A stretch of 64,000 nt of DNA from a bacterium (GTDB lineage Bacteria; Verrucomicrobiota; Verrucomicrobiia; Verrucomicrobiales; V1-33): NCBI GenBank assembly GCA_031411255.1, contig JANOAS010000011.1, positions 36,376 through 100,375 of the forward strand. Direction: 5' to 3'. The translations under genes were made by a program, and so were the position numbers. The notes below the pieces were generated by a model that saw nothing but the letters and a program-made list of their open reading frames with translations, was not told the origin of the DNA and made no database searches. Below are positions 2,115 through 45,922 of the stretch, piece after piece; the first letter of the stretch is position 1, and every line of letters begins with the position of its first letter.

Positions 2115-3371
2115 CTACTTCGCCACTCGCACGGCGTATTCCTGGGAATTGAAGCTCACGTATTCCTGGGAGAGGTCGCTCGTCAGGACGTAGTGGTCGG
2201 CGTCTCCAATGTTGAGGTCGATGGTGACTGTGAACTCGCGCTTGGCGGTCACCTTTTTCAGCTCCTCGATGGGCGTGCCGGAGTAGACCCCGCCCTGCGC
2301 GGCCAGCAGCCCGTCAAAGTAGATGTCCACCATTTCCTCCCGGAAGCGGCGGGCGCGGGAGTAGCCTGCGGCATGCATGACGCGGCCCCAGTTCGGGTCG
2401 CTGCCATTCCAGGAGCACTTCACGAGCATCGAATTCGCCACGGACTCGGCCACGCGCCGTGCATCCAGGTAGTCGGCCGCGCCGCGCACGTGGATCTCGA
2501 CAAACTTGGTCACGCGCTCGCCGTCGTTGACCAGCATCTTGGCGATCCGCAGCATGAGGCTGGTGAGAACGCAGCGGAATCTCTCCGCCTGCGGGGTGCC
2601 GGCCGTGATAAGTTCGTTGCCGGCCTGTCCGTTGGCCAGGACGATCACCGTGTCGTTTGTGCTCGTGTCGCCGTCGATGGAGATGCGGTTGAAGGACCGG
2701 TCCACGGCGAAGAGCGTGGCCTTCTTGAGTTCCTCGGGATCGATGGCCGCATCCGTCGTGATGAAGGCGAACATCGTGCCCATGCTGGGGCAGATCATGC
2801 CCGCCCCCTTGGCCGTGGCCCCGAAGCGGACGGGAATGCCGTCGATCATGACTTCGATGGCGAGGGACTTGTGGTGGGTGTCGCTCGTCATGATCGCCCG
2901 GGCGACGCACTCGCCGTCCTCGCTTTGCAGGCCGGCGACCAGCTCGGGGATGCGGGGCTCGATGCGCTCAATGGCCAGCGGCAGACCGATGATGCCGGTG
3001 GAGCAGACCACAACCTGCGTCTGCCGCAGCCCGAGGGCTTTGGCCGCCCCCTTGGTCATCTTCTTCGCGTCCTCGATGCCGCGCGGGCCTGTGCAGGCAT
3101 TGGCATTGCCGCTGTTCGCGATGATGGCGCGCACCGCGCCGCGCCTCAGGTGGTCCATGCTCACACGCACGGGCGCTGCCTTGACTTTGTTCGACGTAAA
3201 GGTGCCGGCCGCGGCGCATTCGAAATCGGAAACAATGAGCGTGAGGTCCAGCCTCGGATTCGCCGGATCTTTAATGCCGCAGCCGAGGGCATGGCACCGG
3301 AAGCCCTTGGGGGCAACTACGCCCCCGGGAATGTCGGTGAAATCATCAGTTGTGCAGAACCTTTTTGGCAT
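2115..3371 (-). CDS. argJ: bifunctional glutamate N-acetyltransferase / amino-acid acetyltransferase
   Basis: 418-aa ORF matching the ArgJ family (ATxKGAGMI.P.MGTM self-cleavage region). Operon context with argB and argF. Confidence 0.9.
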   Translation of the reverse strand: MPKRFCTTDDFTDIPGGVVAPKGFRCHALGCGIKDPANPRLDLTLIVSDFECAAAGTFTSNKVKAAPVRVSMDHLRRGAVRAIIANSGNANACTGPRGIEDAKKMTKGAAKALGLRQTQVVVCSTGIIGLPLAIERIEPRIPELVAGLQSEDGECVARAIMTSDTHHKSLAIEVMIDGIPVRFGATAKGAGMICPSMGTMFAFITTDAAIDPEELKKATLFAVDRSFNRISIDGDTSTNDTVIVLANGQAGNELITAGTPQAERFRCVLTSLMLRIAKMLVNDGERVTKFVEIHVRGAADYLDARRVAESVANSMLVKCSWNGSDPNWGRVMHAAGYSRARRFREEMVDIYFDGLLAAQGGVYSGTPIEELKKVTAKREFTVTIDLNIGDADHYVLTSDLSQEYVSFNSQEYAVRVAK

Positions 3372-3966
3372 GGGCGGGCGGGGTGAAGGGCGCTACTTAG
3401 AGACGTTTTCGACAGGGTACGCAAGCCTCGTTTCAAAAATCCCCGCACCGCCACCCCAGCATGGGCAAGGCCTTGAGAATATCAGAGATTCCTGACAATC
3501 ATTCAGCCTGCCAGGGTTTTTCCCACTGCCTCGTTTGGGGGGGCTGCGAGCGCAACCGGGTGGCGGGGAGCCGGGGCTTGCACGGGCGCAGTCCGGTGTC
3601 GTCTTTTGGCTCATGCAGGGGAACCCGTTTCCAGGAATGAACCCCTGCCTTGAGGAGCGCTGGCACAGCGTGCATGGCAGCCTCATCACCCATGCCCGGG
3701 ATCAAATCCTACGCCGAGGGCCGGGCCAGGTATGTGGAGATCGACCTCCTGCGGGATGGGCAGCGCGTGAGCGTACCGCGCGAGGCAGTTTCTCCCTGGG
3801 AATTCGCGCTCTACTTCGCCGTGGTGGTGTGCGGTGGCGTCATTGACGCGCGGGAGGACTACTCGTTTCCCCTGGATCAACTACGAGGAGGACCCGCTCC
3901 CTTCTTTCACGGCGGAACAGCGGGTGTGGATGGATGTGCTCCTGAAGAAGCAGGGGTTGCGGTTAG

Positions 3967-6315
3967 TCAAAGACTCCGCACCACCACCCAGGTCTCCAGC
4001 GTTTCCCCGGTAGCCTCATCCGTGGCGGCGAGGCGGTGGCGGCCGGTACGAAGGCGGGCGATGGAGCTGCCATTCTCGCTGGTGACCTCCAGGCTGTCGC
4101 TGTGCCAGTCGACGGTGCCGCGGCCGCGGGCGCGGAGTGGGAGGCGGCTGCCGTGGTCGGGCAGGTCGGGGTCGAGGAGGACGGTGGTGCCGGGTACGGG
4201 GGAAATGATGTGGAGCGCGGTGCGGGCATCCTCTCCGGCTAGGTCACCAGCCACTGCGGCGGTGCCCAGCCAGTTGTCCGGACCGAGCAGCCAGCGCTGG
4301 TAGAGGCGGGGCAGGACCACGCGGCCGAGCGCATCGTAGCGATCCCCGGGCGCGGGTGATGGCACGTGATCGACGAGGAATTTCTCCCGCACCACGGGCC
4401 TGCGCCCGGCCATTTCAGCAGGCAGCGGGCGGCCGGTCAGGGGATCGACATCCGCCTCGGTGATGTCCTCCGGCGTGGCATACCACGTGACGCCGCGGTG
4501 CTTTTCCAGCCAGGTGAAAACCTCCCGCCACACGGGCGCCGCGCCGGTCACACCTGAGACGTGGGCCATCGGGCGGCGGTCGAAATTTCCCACCCACACG
4601 GCCACGGTGAACTCCGGGGTGAAGCCCACGGTCCAGTTGTCGCGGTAGTCGGTGCTCGTACCGGTCTTGACTGCGGCGGGAAAGGGCAGGCGCAGGCTGG
4701 AGTTGAGCCCGAAGCTGCGGACGCGCGCCTGGTTGTCGCACAGCATGTCCGCCAGCAGCCAGCAGGGGCCTGGCTCGAAGCGCCGCACCGGTGCGGGCAG
4801 AGGTGCGTCCTCCGTGAGGGCCACGGGCAGCCACTCCCCGAGGCGGGCCAGCGTGGCGTAGGCATTGGCCAGCTCCAGCAGGCGCACTTCGGCATTCCCG
4901 ATCGTCAGCCCCAGCCCGTAGTGCTCCGGGTCCTCCGTGAGCGTGGTGATGCCCGCCGCCTCCAGCGCTCCGGCCAGCACGGACGGGCCGCCGACGCGCT
5001 GGAGCACGCGCACAGCCGCGAGGTTCAGGCTGTTCGCCAGTGCCTCCCGGCAGCTGACGGGACCGTGGCTCTTGTGGTCGTAGTTTTCCGGCCGGTAGAG
5101 CCCGTCCGGCGTCATGTACTCGACCGGCAGGTCATCAATGATCGTCGCAGGCGTGTCCCCGTGCTGCAGCGCCATGAGGTAGGTGAACGCCTTGAGCGTG
5201 GAGCCCGCAGAGCGCGGTGCCGTGGCCCCGTTGATCTGCCCGCCCTCCGGGTCAAAGTAGTCTGGCGACCCCACAAGGGCCCGCACCCGCCCCGTGGCAT
5301 TCTCCAGCACGACCACCGCGCCGTCGTGCACCTGGTGCTCGCGCAGGCGTCCGATTTTTGTCCGCAGCGTCTGCTCGCAGAAGTGCTGCAGCTCCAGATC
5401 CAGGGTGGTTTTCACCGCCTCATGCCGCTCCTCCAGGCCGGCCCACTGAGGGGACTGAAAGAGGAGATCCAGAAAATGCGGCGCCTCAAACCCTCCAGTG
5501 AACTTCACCAGCTTCAGCTTCTCCTCCATCGCGTGCGCCGCCTCCTCGTCCGTGATCCGCCCGTCATCCTTCATGCGGGAAAGGATCCACTCCTGGCGCT
5601 TTTTAGCCCCCTCGAAATTCTTGTACGGGTTCAGCCGTGTGGGCGCCTGCGGGAGCCCCGCCAGGAACGCGCTCTCAGCCAGGCTCAGGTCCTTCAGCGG
5701 TTTTTGGAAATAGCCCATCGCGGCAGCCGCGCAGCCCATCCTTTGATTTCCGTACTCCACACGCTGGAGGTATTCGGTGATGATGCGCTCCTTGCTCCAG
5801 CTCATCTCCAGCTTTCTCCCGATGAAAATTTCGTCCACCTTGTCCCGCCACGTCCGGCCCGTGTAGCGGCCGCGCGCCACCTTCACCAGCTGCTGGGTGA
5901 TGGTGCTCGCACCGGAAACCGCCCTCTTCGCCTGAAGCGAATCAATCACCGCGCGCACCAGCCCGAGAAAGTCCACCCCGCCGTGGCTCCAGAAGCGCTG
6001 GTCCTCCGCGGACACCGTGGCCGCCACGAGAGAGGCTGGCACATCGTGAAACAGGAGCGGACGTTCCACCCTCTGCCCCTCGACCTGCAGCTGGCGGAGC
6101 GGTTTGCCATCCTTGTCCGCCAGTTCCACGGAGGGCTCCGGCGGGCGCAGCAGCTCCGGTGGCAGCTTCACAAACCTCGGCGCCACGTGATAAAGCAGCA
6201 GTCCGGCCACCATCCCGAGGAGGACAAGCTTCAAAAACCAGCGCCGGCGCACAGGCTCCCGCTCCGGCAGTTCTGCCAGAGTGCTCGGAGCGGAGGTGGA
6301 AAGGCGGGCTGCCAT
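3967..6315 (-). CDS. pbpC: penicillin-binding protein 1C (transglycosylase plus transpeptidase)
   Basis: 782 aa. N-terminal TM helix, GT51 motif EDQRFWSHGGVD, transpeptidase motifs STLK and KTGTS, and a C-terminal PbpC-type domain. Confidence 0.85.
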   Translation of the reverse strand: MAARLSTSAPSTLAELPEREPVRRRWFLKLVLLGMVAGLLLYHVAPRFVKLPPELLRPPEPSVELADKDGKPLRQLQVEGQRVERPLLFHDVPASLVAATVSAEDQRFWSHGGVDFLGLVRAVIDSLQAKRAVSGASTITQQLVKVARGRYTGRTWRDKVDEIFIGRKLEMSWSKERIITEYLQRVEYGNQRMGCAAAAMGYFQKPLKDLSLAESAFLAGLPQAPTRLNPYKNFEGAKKRQEWILSRMKDDGRITDEEAAHAMEEKLKLVKFTGGFEAPHFLDLLFQSPQWAGLEERHEAVKTTLDLELQHFCEQTLRTKIGRLREHQVHDGAVVVLENATGRVRALVGSPDYFDPEGGQINGATAPRSAGSTLKAFTYLMALQHGDTPATIIDDLPVEYMTPDGLYRPENYDHKSHGPVSCREALANSLNLAAVRVLQRVGGPSVLAGALEAAGITTLTEDPEHYGLGLTIGNAEVRLLELANAYATLARLGEWLPVALTEDAPLPAPVRRFEPGPCWLLADMLCDNQARVRSFGLNSSLRLPFPAAVKTGTSTDYRDNWTVGFTPEFTVAVWVGNFDRRPMAHVSGVTGAAPVWREVFTWLEKHRGVTWYATPEDITEADVDPLTGRPLPAEMAGRRPVVREKFLVDHVPSPAPGDRYDALGRVVLPRLYQRWLLGPDNWLGTAAVAGDLAGEDARTALHIISPVPGTTVLLDPDLPDHGSRLPLRARGRGTVDWHSDSLEVTSENGSSIARLRTGRHRLAATDEATGETLETWVVVRSL

Positions 6316-8227: not shown

Positions 8228-8779
8228 ATGGACACCATGAGCGTCTCCCTGTCGCACCGTCTCGGCCAGCCGATGCACACCTCCCTTCTTCTAAGGCGGG
8301 CGGAGCGGTTCGGTCTTCATGGAGAAGAGGACTTCTTGAACCTCGCCTACGCCCGCGGGTGCCGGTATTACGCTCCGCCAGGTTGGAACCAGCCGCCGGA
8401 TTCCCGCAGTTTTGCCTGCCCCGGCGAGGTGCTCGCCATCGCCCTGCTCCACCCTCACTTGCCATATAACCCACAGCGTCTGCGTATTGGCGCAGCCATG
8501 CTGGCTTTTCCGGGGTTGAATGCCTCAACCATAGCCAGGCTCGCCAGGCAGGAGCGGGCGACCCCCATCGTGCGCTACATCACCCAAGCCGCAGCGCATT
8601 GCGAGCCCGCGACGCCCTTCTGGAAATCGCTCTTGGACGAACTTCCCACTGAACGGCAGCCGATTCCTGAGGGGGTTATGCCACATCCCAGCCGGTTCAT
8701 GGCCGTTACAGGCCGCCAGGGACCGGGCAGCAGGACAGTTCAACACACTTGGATCAGGCCGAGTCCGGCCGCCGCATGA
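8228..8779 (+). CDS. hypothetical protein (about 183 aa) in the divergent intergenic region
   Basis: ATG-initiated in-frame segment of the longer antisense ORF 7169-8779, downstream of the esterase gene. GC3-rich codon usage consistent with coding. No recognisable domain. Confidence 0.3.
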   Translation: MDTMSVSLSHRLGQPMHTSLLLRRAERFGLHGEEDFLNLAYARGCRYYAPPGWNQPPDSRSFACPGEVLAIALLHPHLPYNPQRLRIGAAMLAFPGLNASTIARLARQERATPIVRYITQAAAHCEPATPFWKSLLDELPTERQPIPEGVMPHPSRFMAVTGRQGPGSRTVQHTWIRPSPAAA

Positions 8780-9010
8780 ACCACGCGAGCACCATCCTGA
8801 CGGCCTTGGACCACCATTTGGTTCACCAGATGGATTTGATTTGATGAGGCTGGCTTCCGGAGGCTGAGAGTTGAGCCGACCACTCCTCCCTTCCCCCCTG
8901 CTTCCTCACCCACCAGGGTTCTCCCCGACCTTCCCGTCAGGCGCTCCTGACCCTCTGAGCGGGCCGCGCGGGTTTGCTTTCCTGCCCAGCCTGCTACCCT
9001 TGCGGCTCCG

Positions 9011-11953
9011 ATGCTTTTCCTCAACATAGCCCTCACCGCCGGTCTGGCCGCGGTCAGCATTCCGATCATCCTGCACCTGCTGAACCGCCGGTCCAGCAAG
9101 ATCATCGAGTGGGGGGCCATGCGCTTTTTGCTCGACTCTGTGGAATCCAGGAAGCGCCGCATCCAGCTGGAGGAGGCGCTGCTCATGGCCGCGCGCTGCC
9201 TGCTCCTGGCCCTGCTGGCCCTGGCGGTGGCCAGGCCGTTCATCCCGCCGGGGTCAAATGTCCCGTGGGTCGTGGTGCTGCCCTGCTTTCTCCTGGGCGT
9301 GGCCACGCTGGCCGTGGCGGTGGTCATGTGGCACGAGAAGCACCTGCGCAAGTGGCTCTTCGGCGCGACGGCCCTTCTGCTGGGCATCGCGGCGGCTTCC
9401 GTGGCGATGGAGAAATACCTGAATCTGAAACGCTTTGGCACGGCAGGCCGGCGGGACATCGCCATCATCATCGACGGCTCCGCCAGCATGGCGCTCAAGC
9501 AGGGAACGGGCGGCACCACAAACTTCGACCTCGCCCTGAAGGAGGCGGAAAAAATCATCGCCGATGCAGGCAGCGGCACCGCTTTCAGCCTGATCCTGGG
9601 CGCCCCCGTGCCCCAGGCGAAAATCCCGAGCCCCGTGGTGAACCGGGCGGACTTGCGCGAGGCGCTGAATTCCCTGCGGCCGGTGAACGGGCGCATGGCT
9701 TCGTTTGACTGCCTCTCGCTCGCCGCGCAGTCCCTCCTCCAGGGCTCGAATCCTGGCAAGCAGATCATCGTGCTCACCGATGCGCAGGACGTCGGCTGGG
9801 ACCTCGACCGGACCGCCCGCTGGGAGGCGCTGAAGCAGGGGTTCGACACCAATTTTAAATCGAAGCCCGAACTCATCATCCGCCAGTTTTCCCTGCCCAC
9901 CTCGGTGCGGAATGCCGGGATCGCCGGGGTGAAATACTCGCGCAACGTCATCGGGACGGACCGTCCGGTCACCATCGAGGTAACGGTGCAAAACACTGGC
10001 AACGAAGGCGTCACGCCGAGCGCCGTCGAGCTGAAGATCGATGACGAGACGCTGACCGACTCCTCCATTTCCCAGCTCCTGCCCGGCTCCTCGGAGACGG
10101 TACGCTTCCTCCACCAGTTTAAAAAACCCGGAGCCCACGTGCTGACGGCGAAGCTGGCCGTGGAGGACGACCTGGCTGCGGACAACAGCTGGGACACCAT
10201 CGCCGAGGTGACGAACAAGCTGAAGGTCCTCATCATAGACGGCAACCCGTCCGTGCCCTTCATGCAGCGGGCCGGGTCGTTCACGGCGCTGGCCCTGGCC
10301 CCCGGGAGCCTGGCGCGCTCCGTGGTGAAGGTGGACGATCAAAAGGGCGGCTTCGCCCGCGACATGGTGGACCCGGAGGTCATGCCCGTCACCCGGCTCC
10401 AGACGCTCGACAGCTTTGGCCCTTACGACGTGGTCGTTCTCTGCGATGTGGCGCGGCTGGCTCCGTCGAATGCGCGCATGCTGGCCGGATTCGTCGAGGC
10501 GGGCGGCGGCCTGCTCATCGCCCCGGGGCGGCAGGCGGCTGCGGATTTCTACAACGACTGGCGCGCCGGTGATGGCCACGCCGTGCTCCCAGTCCGCCTG
10601 CTGAAGCAGACCCTCCTGCCGGAAACTGCGGACCCGGTGAAGGCCAGCCTGACCACCTTTTCCCACGAGGCGCTGCGGCTCGTCGCGGACGCGAAACAGA
10701 GCGACCTCTCCGGGCTCATCTTCACCCGTTTCTGGAAACTGGCCGACACCGTGGCCGGCGATCCCGGTGTCTATGTCGGCGGCCGACTCACCAGCGGAGA
10801 TCCCTTCCTCGCCTCGCGGAAACTCGGCCAGGGCACCGTCCTCCTCTCCGCCGCCTCGCTGGATGGCGACGGGTCAAACCTCGTCACCCGGCAGGCCTTC
10901 CTGCCGCTCGTGCACGAGATCATCTACCACCTCGCCGCGCCCGGCGGCCAGCGGCTGAACCAGGAGCCCGCCTACGTGCTCAACGTCCCGCTTTCCCGCG
11001 CCCGCCTCGCCAGCGGACTGAAGGGCGAGTACTTCCCCTCGGACAAGATCACCAGCCCCATCCTCGTCCGGAACGACCCCCGCATCGAATTCAACTGGAA
11101 CGACCAGCCCGCCGCCCCGGGCGGACCGGCGGACAATTTCTGCGTGCGCTGGACCGGCTCCCTCGTCCCGAAATACACGGAGGAGTACACCTTCCAGGCC
11201 GAGGCGGACGACGGCTTGGAGCTGTGGATCGGAGATGAGCAAATCCTCGGCCCGAAGCGCCGCCGGGACCGCATCGACCTCGTCGGCGGCCAGCCCGTGC
11301 CGGTGCGCGCCGTTTATCACGAAGGGGGTGGCAATGCCTCCGTCAAGCTCTACTGGCAGAGCCAGAGCCAGCGCCGCCAGATCATTCCGGGCGACTGTCT
11401 GCTGCCCTTTGCGCCTGGTTCAGAGGAGGGGTTTGAAAACGCAGGCGGCACCTTCGACGCCATCGGCCCGGACCAGCAGGCGCGCAGTGTGGACCTCGTC
11501 TACACCCGCACAGGCACCCTCGCCCGCCTCACGGACACCGTCGTGCCCGGCCTCTACCAGATCACCCTGCCGGAGGCGCGGCGCGCGGAGTTTGCCGGGC
11601 TGCTCACGCCCGCCGGCACCCTGCCCTTCACCGTCATTCCAGATGCCTCGGAGGGCCGTCTCAAGCCGCTGGCCGATGACGCCTTTGCCCTCATCAACAA
11701 ATACCTGCCCACCTCGCGCCCCCGCAGCGTGGAGGATGTGCTCGCCATCCTCCAAGGCCGCCAGTTTGGTGAGGAACTCTGGAAATACCTGGCCGTCGGC
11801 GCCCTTTTCCTCCTCTTGGCCGAGATCGCCCTCAGCCGCTGGATTGCCCTCCAGCGGCAGTCCTCCGGCGGTGCCGCCCTCGACTTCGAGTCCCGCTACC
11901 AGCCCGATCAGAAATTCCAGGCCGCCGTCGACCGCCTGAGCCGGGTGGGGTGA
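9011..11953 (+). CDS. BatA-like N-terminal double-TM protein with vWA and PA14 domains
   Basis: 980 aa. N-terminal double-TM aerotolerance-type anchor (TIGR02226-like), a vWA segment (IIDGSASM), a PA14 domain (FCVRWTGSL...YTFQAEADDGLELWIGDEQIL...LYWQSQ) and a C-terminal TM helix. Confidence 0.8.
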   Translation: MLFLNIALTAGLAAVSIPIILHLLNRRSSKIIEWGAMRFLLDSVESRKRRIQLEEALLMAARCLLLALLALAVARPFIPPGSNVPWVVVLPCFLLGVATLAVAVVMWHEKHLRKWLFGATALLLGIAAASVAMEKYLNLKRFGTAGRRDIAIIIDGSASMALKQGTGGTTNFDLALKEAEKIIADAGSGTAFSLILGAPVPQAKIPSPVVNRADLREALNSLRPVNGRMASFDCLSLAAQSLLQGSNPGKQIIVLTDAQDVGWDLDRTARWEALKQGFDTNFKSKPELIIRQFSLPTSVRNAGIAGVKYSRNVIGTDRPVTIEVTVQNTGNEGVTPSAVELKIDDETLTDSSISQLLPGSSETVRFLHQFKKPGAHVLTAKLAVEDDLAADNSWDTIAEVTNKLKVLIIDGNPSVPFMQRAGSFTALALAPGSLARSVVKVDDQKGGFARDMVDPEVMPVTRLQTLDSFGPYDVVVLCDVARLAPSNARMLAGFVEAGGGLLIAPGRQAAADFYNDWRAGDGHAVLPVRLLKQTLLPETADPVKASLTTFSHEALRLVADAKQSDLSGLIFTRFWKLADTVAGDPGVYVGGRLTSGDPFLASRKLGQGTVLLSAASLDGDGSNLVTRQAFLPLVHEIIYHLAAPGGQRLNQEPAYVLNVPLSRARLASGLKGEYFPSDKITSPILVRNDPRIEFNWNDQPAAPGGPADNFCVRWTGSLVPKYTEEYTFQAEADDGLELWIGDEQILGPKRRRDRIDLVGGQPVPVRAVYHEGGGNASVKLYWQSQSQRRQIIPGDCLLPFAPGSEEGFENAGGTFDAIGPDQQARSVDLVYTRTGTLARLTDTVVPGLYQITLPEARRAEFAGLLTPAGTLPFTVIPDASEGRLKPLADDAFALINKYLPTSRPRSVEDVLAILQGRQFGEELWKYLAVGALFLLLAEIALSRWIALQRQSSGGAALDFESRYQPDQKFQAAVDRLSRVG

Positions 11954-19784: not shown

Positions 19785-20112
19785 ATGGCAACCAAGGACA
19801 GTCGGTATGATGCGGTGGTGATCGGCGCGGGCCCGAACGGCCTGGCGGCGGCCATCACGCTGGCTCGGATGGGGCTCGGGGTGCTCGTCGTGGAGGCGCG
19901 GGAGACGGTGGGTGGTGGCACGCGCTCGGCGGAGTTGACCCTGCCGGGGTTTGTCCACGACGTCTGCTCGGCCATCCACCCGCTGGCGTCGTCATCGCCG
20001 TTTTTCCGGATGCTGCCGCTGGAGGGCTTTGGGCTGGAGTGGATCCACCCGGAGGTGCCGCTGGCGCATCCGCTGGAGGATGGACGCGGGGCGGCACTGC
20101 ATCGCAGTGTGC
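19785..20112 (+). repeat. left 328-bp imperfect direct repeat flanking the island
   Basis: Aligns with 23536-23863. About 17 mismatches over 316 aligned nt (about 95%), mostly synonymous third-position changes. Confidence 0.85.
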
Positions 20113-20138
20113 CGATCCTGAGCACTGCGGGCGCCTGA
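19785..20138 (+). pseudogene. truncated 5' fragment (107 conserved aa plus 10 unrelated aa) of a FAD-dependent oxidoreductase, duplicate of 23536-25008
   Basis: [24 protein letters not shown]...AALHR is about 97% identical at protein level to the N-terminus of the intact gene at 23536. Reading frame diverges at 20113 and stops at 20138. Confidence 0.75.
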
Positions 20139-20381
20139 AGCTTCCGTTTCCGCATAACGAGCAGGGAGAAACGCTTTCAACATTCATCTTTCAACGCTCG
20201 GCAGAATTGTTCGCCACAAGCAGGTCCAGACGGCCGATAAAACCGCGTGCGCCGTTCGAAACCGCCGGAGCGGAGAGGCAGGGCGGCCCGTTATGTCAAA
20301 AATGCACACCGCCCTGATTTCAATTGCTATTTCCACCCTACCGCCCCAGCTTTTAACAGCCGACTTGAGCTTCCAATCTTG

Positions 20382-22730
20382 TTATTCGGCGGCTGGATCG
20401 GGACCCGTTCGTATTTCACACTTACAAGAAAGCTTCATGGCGACTGCTTTTGAAACCCGGTCGAGAAGGCCTGTCATTCTATGCTTGGCCCCAGGCCACA
20501 CAAAGATTAAGATCCGGTTCCTCGTGGCCGCTAGTCGCTCTGCCGATGTGGCCTCATCGCACAAATTGAGAAAATGAACTTCGAATGCTTTAGCGCCCTT
20601 GGAGGCGAAGAGCACAGTAAATCGATCTTCGTGCGGAATTTGAAGGGCTTCCGAAATTTCGGCATCTGGCAGTTTTACGGCTGAGTCGTACACTACCTCC
20701 CCTAAGTAATCGTACAATCGTCTGTACTTAACCAAGTATGCCATCTCGCGGACGAGCGGATTGCCGAATTTCTCTAGTTCTGCGAACAATTCGACATCGG
20801 TCAATCTCAGAATCTCGTTGAACGTGTACTTTCCAGACTGGCGCAGCTCGCCAATAGCAATACTCATCATTGCTTGGGCACAAAGATTTTCAGGGCAAAA
20901 ATAGACGTTATCGTAAAGCCAGACGTAAAGCTTGGCGGCCACAGTCAATATGTCTCGTTTTTCGAGTTTGTAGGCCGCGACGTATCGCTTGCCTAGGGCA
21001 CGTATATGCATGGCACGCATTAATACGTCTTTTTCTGAGGCAAGTTTATCAGATGATTTTCGCATTTTTGCCCAACCTTGGCATTTGGTTTGCACGCAGG
21101 GTATTGTATGATAGGAGTCCCTCAGCATGTAGTCCAATCGATCTAGGTCTAAGCCATCGTTAGACAGAATGCAGCCGAGGGGGTGGGTTTTTCGAAGTAT
21201 TGCGGCAATGTTGTCACTCGCGGCAACGGCCCCTCTATATGCGAAATCAAGATCAGCGTATGCTCTGCCTTGTTCCACTGCATTTAAAAACAGCTCAATG
21301 CTGTCCCTCTCATGGTCGCCGGCCACCATTAGTTTGTCCCGAACCAGATCGATTGTATGGCCTAGTGGCCCATGGCCAATGTCGTGCAAAATACAACTAA
21401 GCACGAAGTGCAGGTGATCGCTGGCCAGTGCGGCGAGGTCATAATCAGGCGGAAGCCGATACCGTTGATCACCTCCGTTGGCGAAGGAAGAGCAAAACTG
21501 ATCAGCTAGATGCGCGACCCCCAATGTGTGGGAAAAGCGGTCGTGTGAGGCACTCTGCGCTTTTAGATTGACGAAGGAAAGCTGCTTAATATTTCTCAAA
21601 CGCTGTACTTCCCCCGAATCTATGAAATCTCGCACTTTTGGAGCGATGGATTTGGAGAAGCAAAATTCGCCGTGAATGATATCTGCAAATTTCGGCAAGC
21701 CAACCGGTAGTAGGCGCCCTTCGCACTTCGGGATGAATTCCGGACCATGCCTCAGCAAACGTTTTTCGTCTTTTGGCAGTTCAACTCCGAGTGGATTTTT
21801 GCTAGTAAGCGAGTTGACCACGGAACGCAAGAAAACATCCGCTTTTTCACCAACTGGGTGAAGTCGAATATTATCAGAACTGCACTTTTCTTTAAGGCGT
21901 TGAACTCCTTGCGGCATTCCACTTCGGTTAACCACGAAAACTTGTGTTGGATGCTTTCTGCGACTGGCCGTTTGCGCGAGAACCTCCACCAAATCGAAGT
22001 CCAAAAAAGCATAACCCAAGAAAATCCAAACGGAGCAGGATTCCATAGCTTTGGAGAGGGCTAGATATGGCTCGAAGTTTGATTTTCGTCGTTGTGAGGC
22101 TTTGAATCTTGTTTTTCTTTTGTATCCTCCGATCAATGTCCATGGCTGACTAAGGCTGCCATGGATTTTCATAACAACCTTGCTAAGGTCCGTCCCACCG
22201 TGATATTCGAAGCCCTCAGGATTGCTGGCGACATGGTAGTCCCGACCAAGCAGCTTGTTCATGCTTTCCGCGACAGCGTGAAAAGCGTGATCTAGCTTTT
22301 CGTCGAAATTTGTTGTTGCAAAACCTCCAAATTTCGAATCCGAAAAAAACCAGCGAGCCAGAAGGTAGTATGCCGCTGGGACCGGCTGCTCTGGGGGGAA
22401 CAGCTCGGCAAGGAGCGTTGAATAGTCTAAAGTTTGGTCCCTCTTTTCGATTATATGCTCCCAGACCTGGTCCGGAGATGCCGGATCACTGAACTCGGCT
22501 TCGAACTTGCCGACCAGGTCCTTGTCCAATTCTGCCGAATCTAGGGTGGACGGTTCAACGCAGTAGTACTTCCGCAGCATCGCTCGCCGTAAATCAGCGC
22601 CGAGCGGAAGTTGAAGCCGCGCGTCTACGTCGGAATCTACACCAGCGCCGGCGCCAGCAAAAACAAAGATTTTTTGTCCAGTGCCGAGAGTGGTGAATAC
22701 GTTAACCGCGTTTACTAAAGTTGAATTCAT
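20382..22730 (-). CDS. SIR2-like (DHS-like NAD-binding) domain fused to a SAMHD1/dGTPase-like HD dNTP triphosphohydrolase domain. Candidate anti-phage defence protein.
   Basis: N-terminus has SIR2_2-type motifs: FVFAGAGAGVDS (GAGxS), TTNFD (TTNYD-like, putative catalytic Asn141), KIHGS (His190) and IFLGYAFLDFD. C-terminus aligns with human SAMHD1: VQRLRNIKQLSFV...ASHDRFSHTLGV (SAMHD1 FQRLRYIKQL...ASHNRFEHSLGV), LHDIGHGPLGH (CHDLGHGPFSH), DGLDLDRLDYMLRD (NGIDVDKWDYFARD) and LTDVELFAELEKFGNPLVREMAYLVKYRRLYDYLGEV ([39 protein letters not shown]). Confidence 0.85.
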   Translation of the reverse strand: MNSTLVNAVNVFTTLGTGQKIFVFAGAGAGVDSDVDARLQLPLGADLRRAMLRKYYCVEPSTLDSAELDKDLVGKFEAEFSDPASPDQVWEHIIEKRDQTLDYSTLLAELFPPEQPVPAAYYLLARWFFSDSKFGGFATTNFDEKLDHAFHAVAESMNKLLGRDYHVASNPEGFEYHGGTDLSKVVMKIHGSLSQPWTLIGGYKRKTRFKASQRRKSNFEPYLALSKAMESCSVWIFLGYAFLDFDLVEVLAQTASRRKHPTQVFVVNRSGMPQGVQRLKEKCSSDNIRLHPVGEKADVFLRSVVNSLTSKNPLGVELPKDEKRLLRHGPEFIPKCEGRLLPVGLPKFADIIHGEFCFSKSIAPKVRDFIDSGEVQRLRNIKQLSFVNLKAQSASHDRFSHTLGVAHLADQFCSSFANGGDQRYRLPPDYDLAALASDHLHFVLSCILHDIGHGPLGHTIDLVRDKLMVAGDHERDSIELFLNAVEQGRAYADLDFAYRGAVAASDNIAAILRKTHPLGCILSNDGLDLDRLDYMLRDSYHTIPCVQTKCQGWAKMRKSSDKLASEKDVLMRAMHIRALGKRYVAAYKLEKRDILTVAAKLYVWLYDNVYFCPENLCAQAMMSIAIGELRQSGKYTFNEILRLTDVELFAELEKFGNPLVREMAYLVKYRRLYDYLGEVVYDSAVKLPDAEISEALQIPHEDRFTVLFASKGAKAFEVHFLNLCDEATSAERLAATRNRILIFVWPGAKHRMTGLLDRVSKAVAMKLSCKCEIRTGPDPAAE

Positions 22731-22964
22731 GTTGTCTTCGGGGTGCTTAGTCTATAGATGGCGCTGGCGAAAAATCAATCTCAATATGCTCAAATGAACA
22801 GGTTTTGTGCCTTTTCCGGCCTGTCTTGTGACTTATTGTGTCTGATCCTAGAACGCCTGCTTGGAGCCATGGAGGCTGTATTGCGGTGGAGCGAGGGTGC
22901 TATGTGAAAATTCGAGTTCCTTCCACGATATCTTAGGGTGACCAAAGTCTAGGCGAATGTCGAG

Positions 22965-22990
22965 ATCTGGTCACGGTCAATCTGGTCACG
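22965..22990 (+). repeat. tandem 11-nt direct repeat atctggtcacg(gtca)atctggtcacg in the putative promoter region of the SIR2-HD gene
   Basis: Exact 11-mer repeated with a 4-nt spacer, about 240 bp upstream of the gene start on the coding strand. Confidence 0.6.
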
Positions 22991-23535
22991 CTCACAGTGT
23001 AGTTATTTGTTAATTGTCAGTGGCGTGAATGCCTCAGGGGTCATTCCCAAGAGGTGTTTCACCGCGCCCACTGCTCCCGCCCATTTCGACGAGGACGCGG
23101 ACGCATTTCCAAGCTTGTTGGAAGCGGCGGGCGAGGTCGTTGGATTTCCTGAAGTGGTTGGCCAAGGCGCGGGCCGTGAGGTGGGCGGTGTCCTCATGAG
23201 CGGCCTCGGCCTGGGGGCGGCCCCAAGGGCGGGGGGGGCGGCGGGGCGCTGAGCCAGGTGAGCGATGAAATCGGGGCGTCGGCAGACCGGCTGCGCGGGG
23301 GCTGTGGTCGGGGCTCTGTACGGCGGGAGGCACGTGCGGATCATTTTGCTGTGCTTTCGGGGGCTCGAATTCATTGGAGGTAACGCTACGCCGATTATAG
23401 GCGGGTCAAGCGGCAAATGGTGGGCAGGGATCGCTGAGAGGCGGACTGGGGGCGGTTGGGGGAAGCAATGGGGCGGCTGAAAAATCGCCCGCATTCCCCG
23501 TCGCGGAGTACGGCGGGGCCTGCTAGGGGAGGGGG

Positions 23536-23863
23536 ATGGCGGAAAAGGACACTCGGTATGATGCGGTGGTGATCGGCGCGGGCCCGAACGGGCTGGCGGC
23601 GGCCATCACGCTGGCGCGGATGGGGCTCGGGGTGCTCGTCGTGGAGGCGCGGGAGACGGTGGGCGGCGGCACGCGCTCGGCGGAGTTGACGCTCCCCGGG
23701 TTTGTCCACGACGTCTGCTCGGCCATCCATCCGCTGGCCTCCTCATCGCCGTTTTTCCGGATGCTGCCGCTGGAGGGTTTCGGGCTGGAATGGATCCACC
23801 CGGAGGTGCCGCTCGCGCATCCGCTGGAGGATGGACGCGGGGCGGCGCTGCATCGCTGTGTGC
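23536..23863 (+). repeat. right 328-bp imperfect direct repeat (5' end of the intact oxidoreductase gene)
   Basis: See left repeat. Confidence 0.85.
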
Positions 23864-25008
23864 GGGAAACGGCGGCGGGGCTGGGCGCGGACGGGGCGGC
23901 GTACGAGGATCTTTTCAGCGGACTGGCGGAGAAGGCGGGTGACCTTTTCGAGGAACTCCTCGGCCCGATGCCCATGCCGCCGCAGCACCCCTTCACCCTC
24001 GCAGGATTCGGCCTGAAGGCGGTCTGGTCCGCGCGCGGACTGGCGCGGCGGCGGTTTAAAGCAGAAGAAGCGCGGGCGCTTTTCATGGGAAACGCGGCGC
24101 ACTCGTTCCTGCCGCTCACGCGTCCGCTCACCGCGGCGGTGGGCATCATGCTGCACCTGAGCGCGCACTGGGCGGGCTGGCCGGTGGCGCGGGGCGGGTC
24201 GCAGAAAATCGCCGACGCCATGGTCGCCTACCTGCGCAGCCTGGGCGGGGAAATCCAGTGCGGCCGGTCGGTCGCCTCGCTGGCCGAGCTGCCGGACGCG
24301 CGCGCCTACCTTTTCGACACGAGTCCGCAGGCGATGGCCCGCATCGCCGGGGATGAGCTGCCCGCCGGCTACCAGCGGCGACTCGGCCGCTACCGGTTCG
24401 GCCCCGCCGCTTACAAGCTGGACCTCGCGCTCTCCGGTCCCATCCCGTGGAAAAATGAAGCCTGCCGCCGCGCCGGCACCGTGCATGTGGGCGGGACGGC
24501 GGACGAGATCGTGGCGGCGGAGGCGGCCACCTGGCGGGGCGAGGCTCCGGAGCGGCCCTTCATCCTCGTCGGCCAGCAGAGCCTCTGCGATTCCACCCGC
24601 GCGCCCGCCGGCCAGCACACCGGCTGGGTCTACGCCCACGTGAACCACGCCTGCCGGGAGGACATGACGGAGCGCATCATCTCCCGCATCGAACACTTCG
24701 CCCCCGGCTTCCGGGACGTCATCCTCGCCCGCCACGTGACGACGCCGGCCGACTTCGAGGCGTACAACCCCAACTACGTGGGCGGCGACATCGTGGGTGG
24801 CGTGCAGGACCTGACGCAAATGTTCACCCGCCCCGTGGCAAGGTGGAACCCCTACACCACACCCTCCCGCCGCCTTTTTCTTTGCTCCGCCTCCACCCCG
24901 CCCGGCGCCGGCGTCCACGGCATGGCCGGCTGGCACGCCGCCCGCGCCGCGCTGGCCGGAGGGCTGGACCGCTTCACGTTTCCGAACGGGGACCCGGGGA
25001 GGGGCTGA
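23536..25008 (+). CDS. NAD(P)/FAD-dependent oxidoreductase (phytoene desaturase-related family, COG1233-like)
   Basis: 490 aa with an N-terminal Rossmann dinucleotide motif [15 protein letters not shown] and amine-oxidase/CrtI-like length. Confidence 0.85.
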   Translation: MAEKDTRYDAVVIGAGPNGLAAAITLARMGLGVLVVEARETVGGGTRSAELTLPGFVHDVCSAIHPLASSSPFFRMLPLEGFGLEWIHPEVPLAHPLEDGRGAALHRCVRETAAGLGADGAAYEDLFSGLAEKAGDLFEELLGPMPMPPQHPFTLAGFGLKAVWSARGLARRRFKAEEARALFMGNAAHSFLPLTRPLTAAVGIMLHLSAHWAGWPVARGGSQKIADAMVAYLRSLGGEIQCGRSVASLAELPDARAYLFDTSPQAMARIAGDELPAGYQRRLGRYRFGPAAYKLDLALSGPIPWKNEACRRAGTVHVGGTADEIVAAEAATWRGEAPERPFILVGQQSLCDSTRAPAGQHTGWVYAHVNHACREDMTERIISRIEHFAPGFRDVILARHVTTPADFEAYNPNYVGGDIVGGVQDLTQMFTRPVARWNPYTTPSRRLFLCSASTPPGAGVHGMAGWHAARAALAGGLDRFTFPNGDPGRG

Positions 25009-45666: not shown

Positions 45667-45922
45667 GGCCAGCCGCGCAGGCCAGCGCAGCCACCAAGCC
45701 CAGTCGGCCGGGCGGCGCCAGAGGGCGAGAACGTATCCGCTCAGCCCGCGCGGTGGCGGGCTGTCTGGTGAGCTGCTGGAGGAGGAGGGCACGGGAAAAG
45801 TGGGAGGCGGGCTGGAGTGAAATGAACGGGGGGACTGAGCGGGAACATAGCACAGAGTGAGGCGCAGGGCAGGGGCGGGGATTTGGATCGCGCGATGGCC
45901 AAAAACAAACCGTGGCGGCGAA

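Follow-up and report, generated by a model that had tools for sequence, protein, structure and literature searches.

A single gene in the 64-kb stretch of verrucomicrobial DNA analysed here (64,000 nucleotides, hereafter the window) encodes a protein in which a SIR2 domain is fused to a SAMHD1-like HD domain, and we give slightly better than even chances to the reading that this fusion is a self-contained mobile anti-phage effector, i.e. two enzymes in one chain that would deplete NAD+ and dNTPs and would be coupled by nucleotides. The fusion probably deprives phages of two nucleotide pools during infection. This reading builds on the domain architecture and fold, on the conservation of both active sites, on the rarity and antiquity of the protein family, on the lack of a partner gene and on a foreign base composition or a location in mobile and defence regions.

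Architecture of the fusion protein

A preliminary description had placed a single 782-aa protein at 20382–22730 without naming a strand, and the list of open reading frames and the translation give exactly this span as an ATG-to-stop frame of 782 codons on the minus strand. The sequence motifs quoted there also lie at the residues given for them, i.e. GAGAGVDS at 26–33, TTNFD at 139–143 (with N141), KIHGS at 188–192 (with H190) and FLGYAFLDFD at 237–246 in the SIR2 half, and RFSHTLGV at 398–405, LHDIGHGPLGH at 448–458, DLDRLDYMLRD at 528–538 and LTD...KYRRLYDYLGE at 643–678 in the HD half. The Pfam search that had been proposed bears out the domain assignment: SIR2_2 (PF13289) scores 34.2 bits over aa 137–279, where 24.5 is the gathering score, and HD scores 23.5 against 22, while HD_assoc_2 stays under its Pfam threshold and the protein has no Pfam match for a SAM domain, its N-terminus being SIR2_2. 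Judged by these sequence matches, both domains are far above chance level. The gene and its parts are as follows.

20382–22730, minus strand: SIR2–HD fusion gene, 782 aa, with its ATG at 22728–22730 and its stop codon at 20382–20384
21741–22730, minus strand: SIR2_2 domain of putative defence-type NADase, aa 1–330, with G26/G28 at 22647–22655, N141 at 22308–22310 and H190 at 22161–22163
21696–21740, minus strand: inter-domain linker, aa 331–345, of lower model confidence and variable in alignment A2
20421–21695, minus strand: predicted SAMHD1/EF1143-type HD dNTP triphosphohydrolase core, aa 346–770, with H449-D450 at 21381–21386; core residues are H401, H449-D450, H453, H458, H473, D530, D538 and Y610, and those resembling allosteric site 1 are D371, Q376 and R379

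In the AF2 model the protein forms a confident single unit (pLDDT 85.5, pTM 0.87), with pLDDT falling to about 55–72 in the linker zone at residues 320–350 or so. An identical protein (P0001) is present in public data. Homologues also carry the PF13289 annotation, and there are full-length ones with E-values down to 8e-148. The second 782-aa frame of the window (3967–6315) encodes a class A penicillin-binding protein, and its equal length is coincidental.

The preliminary description could not place this architecture in any described system; in fact, SIR2–dGTPase fusions in Verrucomicrobiota had already been noted (PMC13519002, July 2026). That study (Shi et al., Nat Commun 2026) is devoted to stand-alone octameric dGTPases and mentions the fusions, in Verrucomicrobiota and archaea, in its Fig. 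1 and in one sentence, without experiments and without an analysis of their active sites, family size or context (PMC13519002). The window protein, being one polypeptide with a SIR2-like and a dGTPase/HD domain from a host that homologues of the neighbouring genes place in Verrucomicrobiota, is most probably a member of this set.

Two active sites conserved together

In the SIR2 half, the Rossmann GxG loop as well as the catalytic Asn and His are invariant among the family members with sequence at the respective position (G26 and G28 in 44 of 44, N141 in 46 of 46, H190 in 47 of 47). At the sequence level this half matches defence NADases only, with the canonical Hst2 at E=1.9, and its fold resembles defence NADases more closely than it does protein deacetylases. 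Its nearest relatives by sequence and structure are PsSIR2 of SIR2-HerA, KomC, ThsA, DSR2 and SIR2-APAZ, all of them NAD+-depleting effectors. By its sequence, the SIR2 half is thus a putative defence-type NADase that would cleave NAD+. A profile of this half returned no match from a collection of 5.8 billion proteins, and a metagenome scan gave a SIR2-TPR protein as another architecture with this SIR2 subtype.

The HD half had been described as a complete SAMHD1-like core, and this assignment holds: human SAMHD1 is matched by the family profile over residues 113–515 (E=3e-38), and the alignment of the HD half extends over the entire catalytic core of SAMHD1, C-terminal lobe included. The metal site (H401, H449-D450 and D530, corresponding to SAMHD1 H167, H206-D207 and D311) is kept in 47 of 47 members, and so is the catalytic set H453, H458 and H473-E474 (SAMHD1 H210, H215 and H233-E234), with E474 present in 46. 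The deoxyribose-selective pocket, for which SAMHD1 uses Q149, L150, R164, D319, Y374 and Y315, is represented by Q383, L384, R398 and D538 (47/47 each), Y610 (46/46) and a Tyr or Phe at position 534; SAMHD1 R366 is not conserved, the fusion protein having Y602 there. Equivalents of allosteric site 1 are largely kept (Q376 in 46 and R379 in 43 of 47 members, D371 as Asp or Asn in 41 of 47). In the family alignment the SAMHD1 allosteric-site-2 residues N119, H376 and K377 are not conserved, and therefore a SAMHD1-like two-site regulation is not to be assumed. This pattern is that of a predicted SAMHD1/EF1143-type triphosphohydrolase that would convert dNTPs to deoxynucleosides and triphosphate.

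Over 903 pairs of family members, the SIR2 and HD halves have co-diverged (r=0.96), with a mean identity of 29% and 35%, respectively. Such co-divergence implies that purifying selection has acted on both halves ever since a single old fusion event. As far as alignments can tell, the fusion is ancient and both active sites are intact in 47 members.

A rare family and its genomic surroundings

The fusion family is rare, with about 25–27 clusters at 50% identity among 1.84 billion (1.84e9) representatives, and is spread over bacteria and archaea. A profile search of genome contigs with the full-length alignment worked with HD-derived patterns and gave at least 80 loci; the matches listed, which begin only from aa 308 on, are dominated by ordinary stand-alone HD dNTPases. 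No relatives of the family were found on IMG/VR viral contigs, and matches in BFVD and PHROG cover the HD part only, so that these collections give no direct tie between the family and phages. The comparison with defence models that had been suggested came out negative: the fusion protein escapes recognition by the defence models of PADLOC and NCBIfam, and at the curated threshold there is no full-length match to the anti-phage dGTPase model of the Dgt clade (NCBIfam NF041026/PADLOC dGTPase).

In the window, the gene lies in a compositionally foreign islet with a single cargo gene, just as first described. GC content is 0.493 and GC3 is 0.51, compared with about 0.65 and 0.85 elsewhere in the window; apart from the fusion gene, the 64 kb contain no strong GC outlier and the islet has no open reading frame of coding character. 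The gene is horizontally acquired. It is framed by the following elements.

19785–20113, plus strand: left copy of a direct repeat (329 bp), in which an FAD/NAD oxidoreductase gene is truncated to a 5' fragment (open reading frame 19785–20138, 117 aa)
20114–20381, no strand: non-coding 3' flank of the cargo with a GC content of 0.556 and no Rfam match
22731–23002, no strand: low-GC (0.489) region upstream of the fusion gene, with the tandem 15-mer ATCTGGTCACGSTCA in two copies at 22965–22994
23003–23535, no strand: GC-rich (0.657) spacer without a convincing open reading frame by GC and GC3 values
23536–23864, plus strand: right copy of this repeat, formed by the 5' end of the oxidoreductase gene in its intact form (23536–25008, 490 aa)

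The two repeat copies are identical at 307 of 329 nucleotides in a DNA alignment, and 16 of the 22 differences fall on codon position 3; by BLASTP, the 117-aa frame (Pfam NAD_binding_8) shares 106 of 109 residues with the N-terminus of the 490-aa oxidoreductase. At the left copy, only 21 nt separate the end of a sigma-54 regulator gene from the start codon of the oxidoreductase, and the spacer at 23003–23535 is therefore not what ancestrally lay upstream of the oxidoreductase gene. It would rather be a donor-lineage flank brought in together with the cargo; its 163-aa frame has no Pfam match, and no further copy of the spacer occurs in the window. The region 22731–23002 presumably holds the promoter of the fusion gene; a scan for the sigma-70 consensus, which is not informative for Verrucomicrobiota, gave no match there. 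As to hallmarks of integration, there is no tRNA gene in the window and no integrase or transposase frame or Rfam family in the islet. A 3.5-kb Logan contig ends inside the flanking repeats.

As to the defence-island context of the family, the fusion gene sits in a clearly mobile or defence region in 6 of the 12 loci compared, and has no such neighbours in 4 of 12 (L084, L086, L087 and L100). The six loci are the following.

Window: the islet described above
L082: island with an integrase and a methyltransferase (MTase)
L088: serine recombinase and an extra dGTPase
L091: AbiE
L096: TIR protein, IS110 and MTase
L099: cargo region of a conjugative element, with Mrr

In six of nine loci the GC content of the fusion gene is 7–22 points below that of its flanks. 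An all-against-all BLASTP search for a conserved small partner, which in nine loci took in stop-to-stop frames of 50 aa or more up to 3.5 kb from the gene, gave one match, between receiver-domain regulators. With no neighbour conserved across loci, the fusion thus appears as a single-gene module, and there is no sign of an accompanying inhibitor or antitoxin. In L086 the fusion gene shares a 4-nt overlap with a Nudix/NrtR-type NAD regulator gene, which was considered as part of the module, as a possible tie to NAD/ADPR sensing, and rejected: the regulator gene occurs in this one locus and has host GC (0.64, with 0.41 for the fusion gene), and thus its adjacency looks like an insertion accident. 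The TIR-domain protein encoded immediately upstream of the fusion in L096 is the sole TIR neighbour among the 12 loci and has a different architecture. In L100, a HerA-like gene lies 8 kb away, beyond replication genes; no HerA ATPase gene was found in or beside the islet of the window.

A model of nucleotide-driven coupling and its alternatives

From these features we infer both enzymatic activities, a defence role, a trigger and their coupling. Defence SIR2s such as ThsA, DSR2, SIR2-HerA and SPARSA are activated through oligomerization. In an uninfected cell the fusion protein would be held quiet. Infection would then disturb a nucleotide pool, e.g. by a phage-driven rise in dNTPs, and (d)GTP or a dNTP might occupy allosteric site 1, which is SAMHD1-like and conserved, and thereby cause the HD core to oligomerize. 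Such oligomerization could both switch on dNTP hydrolysis and gather the N-terminal SIR2 domains into an active NADase assembly. Loss of dNTPs and NAD+ would block phage DNA synthesis as well as energy metabolism, i.e. lead to growth arrest or abortive infection, and phage escape would take two unrelated counter-measures. That the SAMHD1-like core is infection sensor and effector at once, sensing through its conserved allosteric site that the phage has made (d)NTPs surge or fall out of balance and licensing the SIR2 NADase by oligomerization, is a tentative proposal to which we give clearly less than even chances. There are precedents for the nucleotide input: Clover CloA, a defence dNTPase with an allosteric nucleotide site, senses phage-induced dTTP (PMC12265719), and Vdg is a defence dNTPase that is regulated via such a site, with dAMP (PMC13519002).

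Two alternatives would divide the labour differently between the two halves. In a ThsA-like logic, the SIR2 NADase would be the sole effector and the HD domain would replace SLOG as a module for oligomerization and for binding a nucleotide or signal, without physiologically relevant dNTP hydrolysis. This reading has been put forward for the fusions (PMC13519002); the layout is that of ThsA, with SIR2 at the N-terminus and a nucleotide-binding domain at the C-terminus, allosteric site 1 has a conserved motif, and the TIR gene directly upstream in L096 recalls ThsB. A pure sensor should lose its catalytic residues, however, yet the metal ligands and the counterparts of SAMHD1 H210, H215, H233 and L150 (47/47) and of Y374 (46/46) have persisted at about 35% mean identity, and a TIR or other signal-generating partner, present in one of the 12 loci, is not conserved; we thus consider a sensor-only HD domain unlikely. 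Conversely, the HD dNTPase might be the effector and the SIR2 half a regulatory binder of NAD+ or ADP-ribose, or an ADP-ribosyltransferase or deacylase acting on the HD domain or a phage target. This would be very unlikely in view of closest relatives that are all NAD+-depleting effectors (PsSIR2, KomC, ThsA, DSR2, SIR2-APAZ) and of the invariance of the Asn and His required for NAD+ cleavage.

Other alternatives concern the role rather than the mechanism. The fusion could be a housekeeping or regulatory enzyme, a governor of nucleotide pools that ties NAD+ status to dNTP levels (e.g. in replication or stationary phase) and looks foreign because it is rarely retained. Housekeeping roles are also known for SAMHD1, EF1143 and Dgt; neighbours are ordinary in four of 12 loci, with the L086 overlap among the suggestive arrangements, and in a Hydrothermarchaeota archaeon the fusion gene directly follows Cdc6, PolD-DP1 and PolD-DP2. 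A housekeeping enzyme hardly fits the extremely patchy spread of so few clusters across bacteria and archaea, a foreign composition in most hosts, a location inside integrase, recombinase or conjugative elements and beside Abi, TIR, MTase or Mrr genes, a SIR2 half that resembles defence NADases only, or the host-like GC of the L086 NrtR gene, and is in our view quite unlikely. Least probable of all seems an inter-element weapon or addiction module of mobile elements, aimed at rival plasmids or integrative and conjugative elements more than at lytic phages. Its carriage on a conjugative element (L099) and integrative islands (L082, L088) and the lack of viral copies in IMG/VR, BFVD and PHROG would agree with such a role, but there is no conserved antitoxin-like partner, nucleotide depletion is not plasmid-selective, and no mobility genes accompany the fusion gene in the window.

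Implications

Depletion of NAD+ (by SIR2 and TIR proteins) and of dNTPs (by dGTPases and SAMHD1) are among the best-established antiviral strategies of nucleotide starvation, which have been studied as separate systems. That both catalytic centres are kept together over deep divergence suggests a paired selection of the two activities. Phages rebuild NAD+ and inhibit or bypass dNTPases, and the pairing could provide redundancy against such counter-measures; alternatively, one domain may control the other. If the HD core is indeed sensor as well as effector, the fusion would be a one-protein immune module whose trigger is a primary metabolite and neither a dedicated second messenger nor a protein of the phage, with dNTP depletion wired to NAD+ depletion. 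As a prokaryotic relative of SAMHD1, it would then have an immune output which SAMHD1 lacks. A plain two-effector fusion, by comparison, would be a useful though incremental addition to defence catalogues; current PADLOC models miss it. The fusion also bears on the question of whether bacterial and archaeal relatives of SAMHD1 act in immunity. Being a small protein with no partner gene and obvious point mutants, it could serve as a compact test bed for the nucleotide-sensing control of an oligomerization-gated SIR2.

Relation to known systems

SAMHD1 (human, Caenorhabditis elegans, R. irregularis) and EF1143 of Enterococcus faecalis are tetrameric, allosterically regulated dNTP triphosphohydrolases, to which the fusion is related at about 17–21% identity, with SIR2 in place of the SAM domain and with the differences at R366 and allosteric site 2 noted above. 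The Dgt-clade anti-phage dGTPases (the dGTPase of Tal et al. 2022, Clover CloA and Vibrio Vdg) are likewise HD-superfamily dNTP triphosphohydrolases and act as nucleotide-depleting defence effectors under allosteric nucleotide control.

On the SIR2 side, ThsA of Thoeris is a SIR2-SLOG NADase, whereas the C-terminal domain of the fusion is an HD dNTPase by its sequence; a ThsB/TIR partner is missing from the window and from 11 of the 12 loci, and the PADLOC ThsA models give weak partial matches. PsSIR2 (8w9l) of the two-gene SIR2-HerA system is a stand-alone, HerA-dependent protein of 381 aa, whereas the SIR2 domain of the fusion is covalently joined to HD. The PADLOC Dsr1 model matches one of 11 members of the fusion family, and the profile reaches DSR2 at E=1.4e-6. 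Like DSR1 and DSR2, the fusion would be a one-gene system that has a regulatory region C-terminal to its SIR2 NADase; the C-terminal regions of the DSR proteins, however, are large non-enzymatic sensors of phage proteins (about 700 aa), whereas that of the fusion is predicted to be a second enzyme.

The fusion protein and its domains

The gene at positions 20382-22730 is a single ATG-to-stop open reading frame of 782 codons that fills this interval on the minus strand, and all motifs quoted in the preliminary description were found at the residues given there. Its assignment to SIR2 and HD domains also stands, since both exceed curated Pfam thresholds, i.e. SIR2_2 with 34.2 bits against 24.5 (aa 137-279) and HD with 23.5 bits against 22 (aa 398-479); an HD_assoc_2 match (aa 607-674) stays below threshold. 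Mean pLDDT (85.5) and pTM (0.87) mark the AlphaFold2 model derived from the family alignment as confident, with weak spots limited to a loop in the SIR2 half (aa 201-217) and the surroundings of the linker. Overall, the protein comprises two complete enzyme folds with intact and co-conserved active sites in one chain, without a partner gene, and is predicted to form a single confident unit. A second open reading frame of exactly 782 aa (3967-6315, minus strand) encodes an unrelated class A penicillin-binding protein (transglycosylase, transpeptidase and BiPBP_C), the equal length being a coincidence; another class A penicillin-binding protein is encoded at 43591-46203.

By sequence, the best solved relatives of the HD half are E. 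faecalis EF1143 (2o6i, E=5e-18) and then SAMHD1 (~1e-9). With a profile built from 25 family members, matches were obtained to human SAMHD1 (residues 113-515, E=3e-38) and to a fungal SAMHD1 (E = 8e-41), and the structural kinship with SAMHD1 that had been anticipated was borne out by Foldseek, where the top 50 matches of the AlphaFold2 model are all SAMHD1 chains (TM 0.64-0.72, normalised to SAMHD1). The curated anti-phage dGTPase model NF041026 (NCBIfam), which has a cut-off of 400 bits, gave a score of 16 and the PADLOC dGTPase model aligns to aa 372-468 only, so that neither accepts the protein. Thus, of the two earlier labels for the HD core, 'SAMHD1-like' is right, whereas 'Dgt-type' applies as a superfamily-level resemblance only.

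Residues of the fusion protein and SAMHD1 counterparts, as mapped through the profile alignment and chain 7ujn_A (full-length SAMHD1)
Q383/L384: Q149/L150
R398: R164
H401: H167
H449-D450: H206-D207
H453: H210
H458: H215
H473-E474: H233-E234
D530: D311
R531: K312
Y534: Y315
D538: D319
Y610: Y374
D371/Q376/R379: D137/Q142/R145 (allosteric site 1)

In this mapping, SAMHD1 R366 and the residues N119, H376 and K377 of allosteric site 2 have no conserved counterpart in the fusion protein.

A small, old and patchy family

A word-indexed search retrieved the identical protein on an NCBI contig (175,782 bp) and a Logan contig, as well as about 25 full-length homologues (749-813 aa, 25-38% identity), nearly all annotated as SIR2_2 plus HD, the nearest being just 37-38% identical to the window protein. 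When 1.84 billion representatives of 50%-identity clusters were searched exhaustively by HMM, 20,329 relatives emerged (E<=1e-3), yet both halves are covered in only about 25-27 of them; the others are stand-alone HD dNTPases of ~430-480 aa, which span the whole C-terminal half, and some large HD-containing proteins. Next-closest to the HD core after the stand-alone enzymes are the proteins P0082 and P0083 and about 40 similar representatives (1400-1650 aa), which carry the HD domain mid-chain and a C-terminal CYTH (triphosphate tunnel) domain; another relative, P0079, has beta/gamma-crystallin domains. On contig L098 (4984-6660), a 558-aa protein joins a related SIR2_2 domain to TPR repeats in place of the HD core, i.e. 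the same SIR2 subtype pairs with differing C-terminal modules.

Known hosts are Verrucomicrobiota (the window, where homologues of neighbouring genes, 56-58% identical, are named Verrucomicrobiota, Verrucomicrobiales or Prosthecobacter), Methanobacterium and a Hydrothermarchaeota archaeon; judged by flanking genes, further hosts look Bacteroidota-like and PVC group-like. The IMG/VR viral contigs searched contain no family member or relative, and viral structure and PHROG matches are restricted to the HD part.

In an alignment of 47 sequences, the catalytic residues of the two domains are kept in all sequences that cover them: N141 (46/46) and H190 (47/47) in the SIR2 half, and H401, H449, D450, H453, H458, H473, D530 and D538 (47/47 each) in the HD half. 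Averaged over sequence pairs, the SIR2 halves share 29% and the HD halves 35% identity, and these two sets of pairwise values are strongly correlated (r=0.96). This conservation and correlation indicate that the halves descend from one old fusion event and have been co-evolving, with purifying selection on both active sites.

A solitary islet, probably acquired by recombination

As previously described, the gene lies in compositionally foreign DNA, this low-GC islet being the sole strong GC outlier within 64 kb.

Features of the islet and its borders
19785-20138: truncated FAD/NAD-oxidoreductase fragment (117 aa) containing the left copy of a 329-bp direct repeat
19785-20113: left repeat copy, 5' end of an FAD/NAD oxidoreductase gene
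20382-22730, minus strand: fusion gene
22965-22994: tandem 15-mer ATCTGGTCACGGTCA / ATCTGGTCACGCTCA
23003-23535: GC-rich spacer (533 bp, GC 0.66, G8 run) upstream of the right repeat copy
23536-23864: right repeat copy, start of the intact 490-aa oxidoreductase gene

Gene calling based on GC3, combined with Pfam, places genes for a UvrD-like helicase, UppS, a sigma-54 response regulator (end 19763) and the 117-aa fragment on the left, and for the intact oxidoreductase (23536-25008), an MFS transporter and an SGL/esterase protein on the right. With housekeeping genes on both flanks, the islet is a solitary insertion rather than a multi-system defence island; a tRNA, an integrase or an Rfam family was not found in it. 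An independent read-set assembly (L001, Logan SRR20217193, 3517 bp) corresponds to window 20066-23582, is 100% identical over the islet and ends 47 nt inside each repeat, as expected of an assembler stopping at a repeat, which speaks for a genuine arrangement and against a mis-assembly.

Identity between the repeat copies is 93.3%; of the 22 differences, 16 fall on third codon positions, with just three amino-acid changes. This is the signature of divergence under purifying selection, which argues that the copies represent orthologous genes of two related lineages and not an in-situ duplication. Since, in addition, the left copy is truncated and the right one intact, we infer that the islet was acquired from a related lineage through one homologous crossover rather than site-specific integration: the cargo would have come from a related high-GC lineage, bringing part of the oxidoreductase gene present there, and a circular intermediate would have integrated by a Campbell-type crossover, with an intact gene restored on the right and the truncated copy left behind on the other side. 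The low GC of the core (~20140-23000) suggests an original donor that is further removed. Because the regulator gene runs up to the oxidoreductase start at the left copy, the spacer is not ancestral and probably came along with the cargo; it contains no credible ORF, has no Pfam or Rfam match and no second copy within the window. It parts the intact oxidoreductase gene from its presumed native upstream neighbour, and expression of this gene may now depend on imported sequence. The tandem 15-mer, ~235-265 nt upstream of the fusion start codon, sits where low GC turns to high GC and could be an operator or the remnant of a recombination junction.

Genomic contexts of the fusion gene

Context was compared in a small sample of 12 loci, including the window islet.

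Contexts of the fusion gene
Window islet: clearly mobile or defence
L082: clearly mobile or defence; tyrosine integrase, excisionase-like HTH, RadC, DNA methyltransferase, SMC-like ATPase
L088: clearly mobile or defence; large serine recombinase, DUF5131 radical-SAM protein, second HD/HD_assoc dGTPase
L091: clearly mobile or defence; AbiEi/AbiEii
L096: clearly mobile or defence; TIR-domain protein immediately upstream, IS110 transposase, 926-aa DNA methyltransferase
L099: clearly mobile or defence; TrwC relaxase, T4SS coupling protein, ImmA-like peptidase, Mrr-type nuclease
L085: weak; DUF2726
L089: weak; three LRR-Roc-COR proteins
L084, L086, L087: no mobile or defence context
L100: no mobile or defence context; directly after Cdc6 and two PolD subunits

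A clearly mobile or defence context was present in six loci, weak in two and absent from four. The fusion gene has a GC content 7-22 points below its surroundings in six of nine loci, and no neighbouring ORF is common to several of the loci compared. Within the limits of this small sample, the pattern fits a horizontally mobile single-gene module of defence type.

Some individual loci deserve mention. In L088, a stand-alone HD plus HD_assoc dGTPase gene (8229-9428) lies 2.2 kb from the fusion homologue, placing two dNTPase-type genes in one mobile region; the DUF5131 gene is also nearby and the serine recombinase gene adjoins. The 672-aa protein encoded immediately upstream of the fusion homologue in L096 (896-2914) combines TIR_2, LacI-type periplasmic-binding-protein-like and 2H/LigT (2'-5' RNA ligase-like) phosphoesterase domains, an unusual architecture that makes it a candidate sensor-effector; the transposase and methyltransferase genes are located downstream. 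In L086, a Nudix plus NrtR-type winged-helix regulator gene (3279-3965) overlaps the start of the fusion gene (3962-6304) by 4 nt. Such regulators belong to an ADP-ribose-responsive NAD regulator family, and an ADPR-sensing regulator beside a predicted NADase is suggestive, but the regulator gene has host-level GC (0.64) and the fusion gene 0.41, so that the adjacency is probably an insertion accident. In Candidatus Pyrohabitans sp. (Hydrothermarchaeota; L100, 2156-12274, WP_457554940.1), the fusion gene directly follows Cdc6/Orc1, the PolD small subunit and the intein-containing PolD large subunit, a replication-locus position that could be chance or hint at a tie to replication and dNTP supply.

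Novelty, function and relation to known systems

Each of the two modules is a textbook defence effector, and fusions between effectors are frequent; for specialists the protein is an attractive test subject rather than a startling one. Contrary to what the preliminary description had supposed, the architecture is not undescribed: Shi et al. (Nat Commun, 25 July 2026; PMC13519002) name SIR2 as one of the immune domains that occur in fusion with dGTPase domains. The literature searched, comparative-genomics work on NAD+ and conflict systems included, held no account that was earlier or more detailed, and the fusion is absent from the PADLOC-DB v2 models. Thus, the existence of SIR2-dGTPase fusions is already known and they are otherwise uncharacterised, while family size, co-evolving halves, conserved active sites, SAMHD1-clade membership, single-gene status and mode of acquisition, all worked out in the present analysis, had not been reported in the literature searched.

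We slightly favour the general view that the protein is a dual-enzyme anti-phage effector. That the HD core acts as a sensor only, a ThsA-like reading offered by Shi et al. (PMC13519002), seems rather unlikely with its catalytic machinery strictly conserved, and conservation and co-evolution speak against a degenerate, sensor-only status of either half. A housekeeping governor of nucleotide pools could draw on the PolD-adjacent archaeal locus and the loci with plain context, but is decidedly unlikely in view of the patchy distribution, foreign composition and mobile contexts of the gene. It is very unlikely that the SIR2 half is not an NADase, and a role in inter-element conflict appears the least probable of these readings.

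How might a dual-enzyme effector work? SAMHD1 and EF1143 hydrolyse dNTPs and are turned on through nucleotide-driven tetramerisation, and the defence SIR2 domains of ThsA, DSR2, SIR2-HerA and SPARSA are NADases activated by oligomerisation. Nucleotide binding in the conserved site-1-like pocket could cause the HD core to oligomerise, which would activate dNTP hydrolysis and at the same time assemble the SIR2 domains into an active NADase, with depletion of both pools as the outcome; this specific coupling we put forward as a tentative possibility. Among known systems, defence dNTPases are likewise under allosteric nucleotide control, with CloA sensing phage-induced dTTP (PMC12265719) and Vdg responding to dAMP and requiring octamers (PMC13519002).
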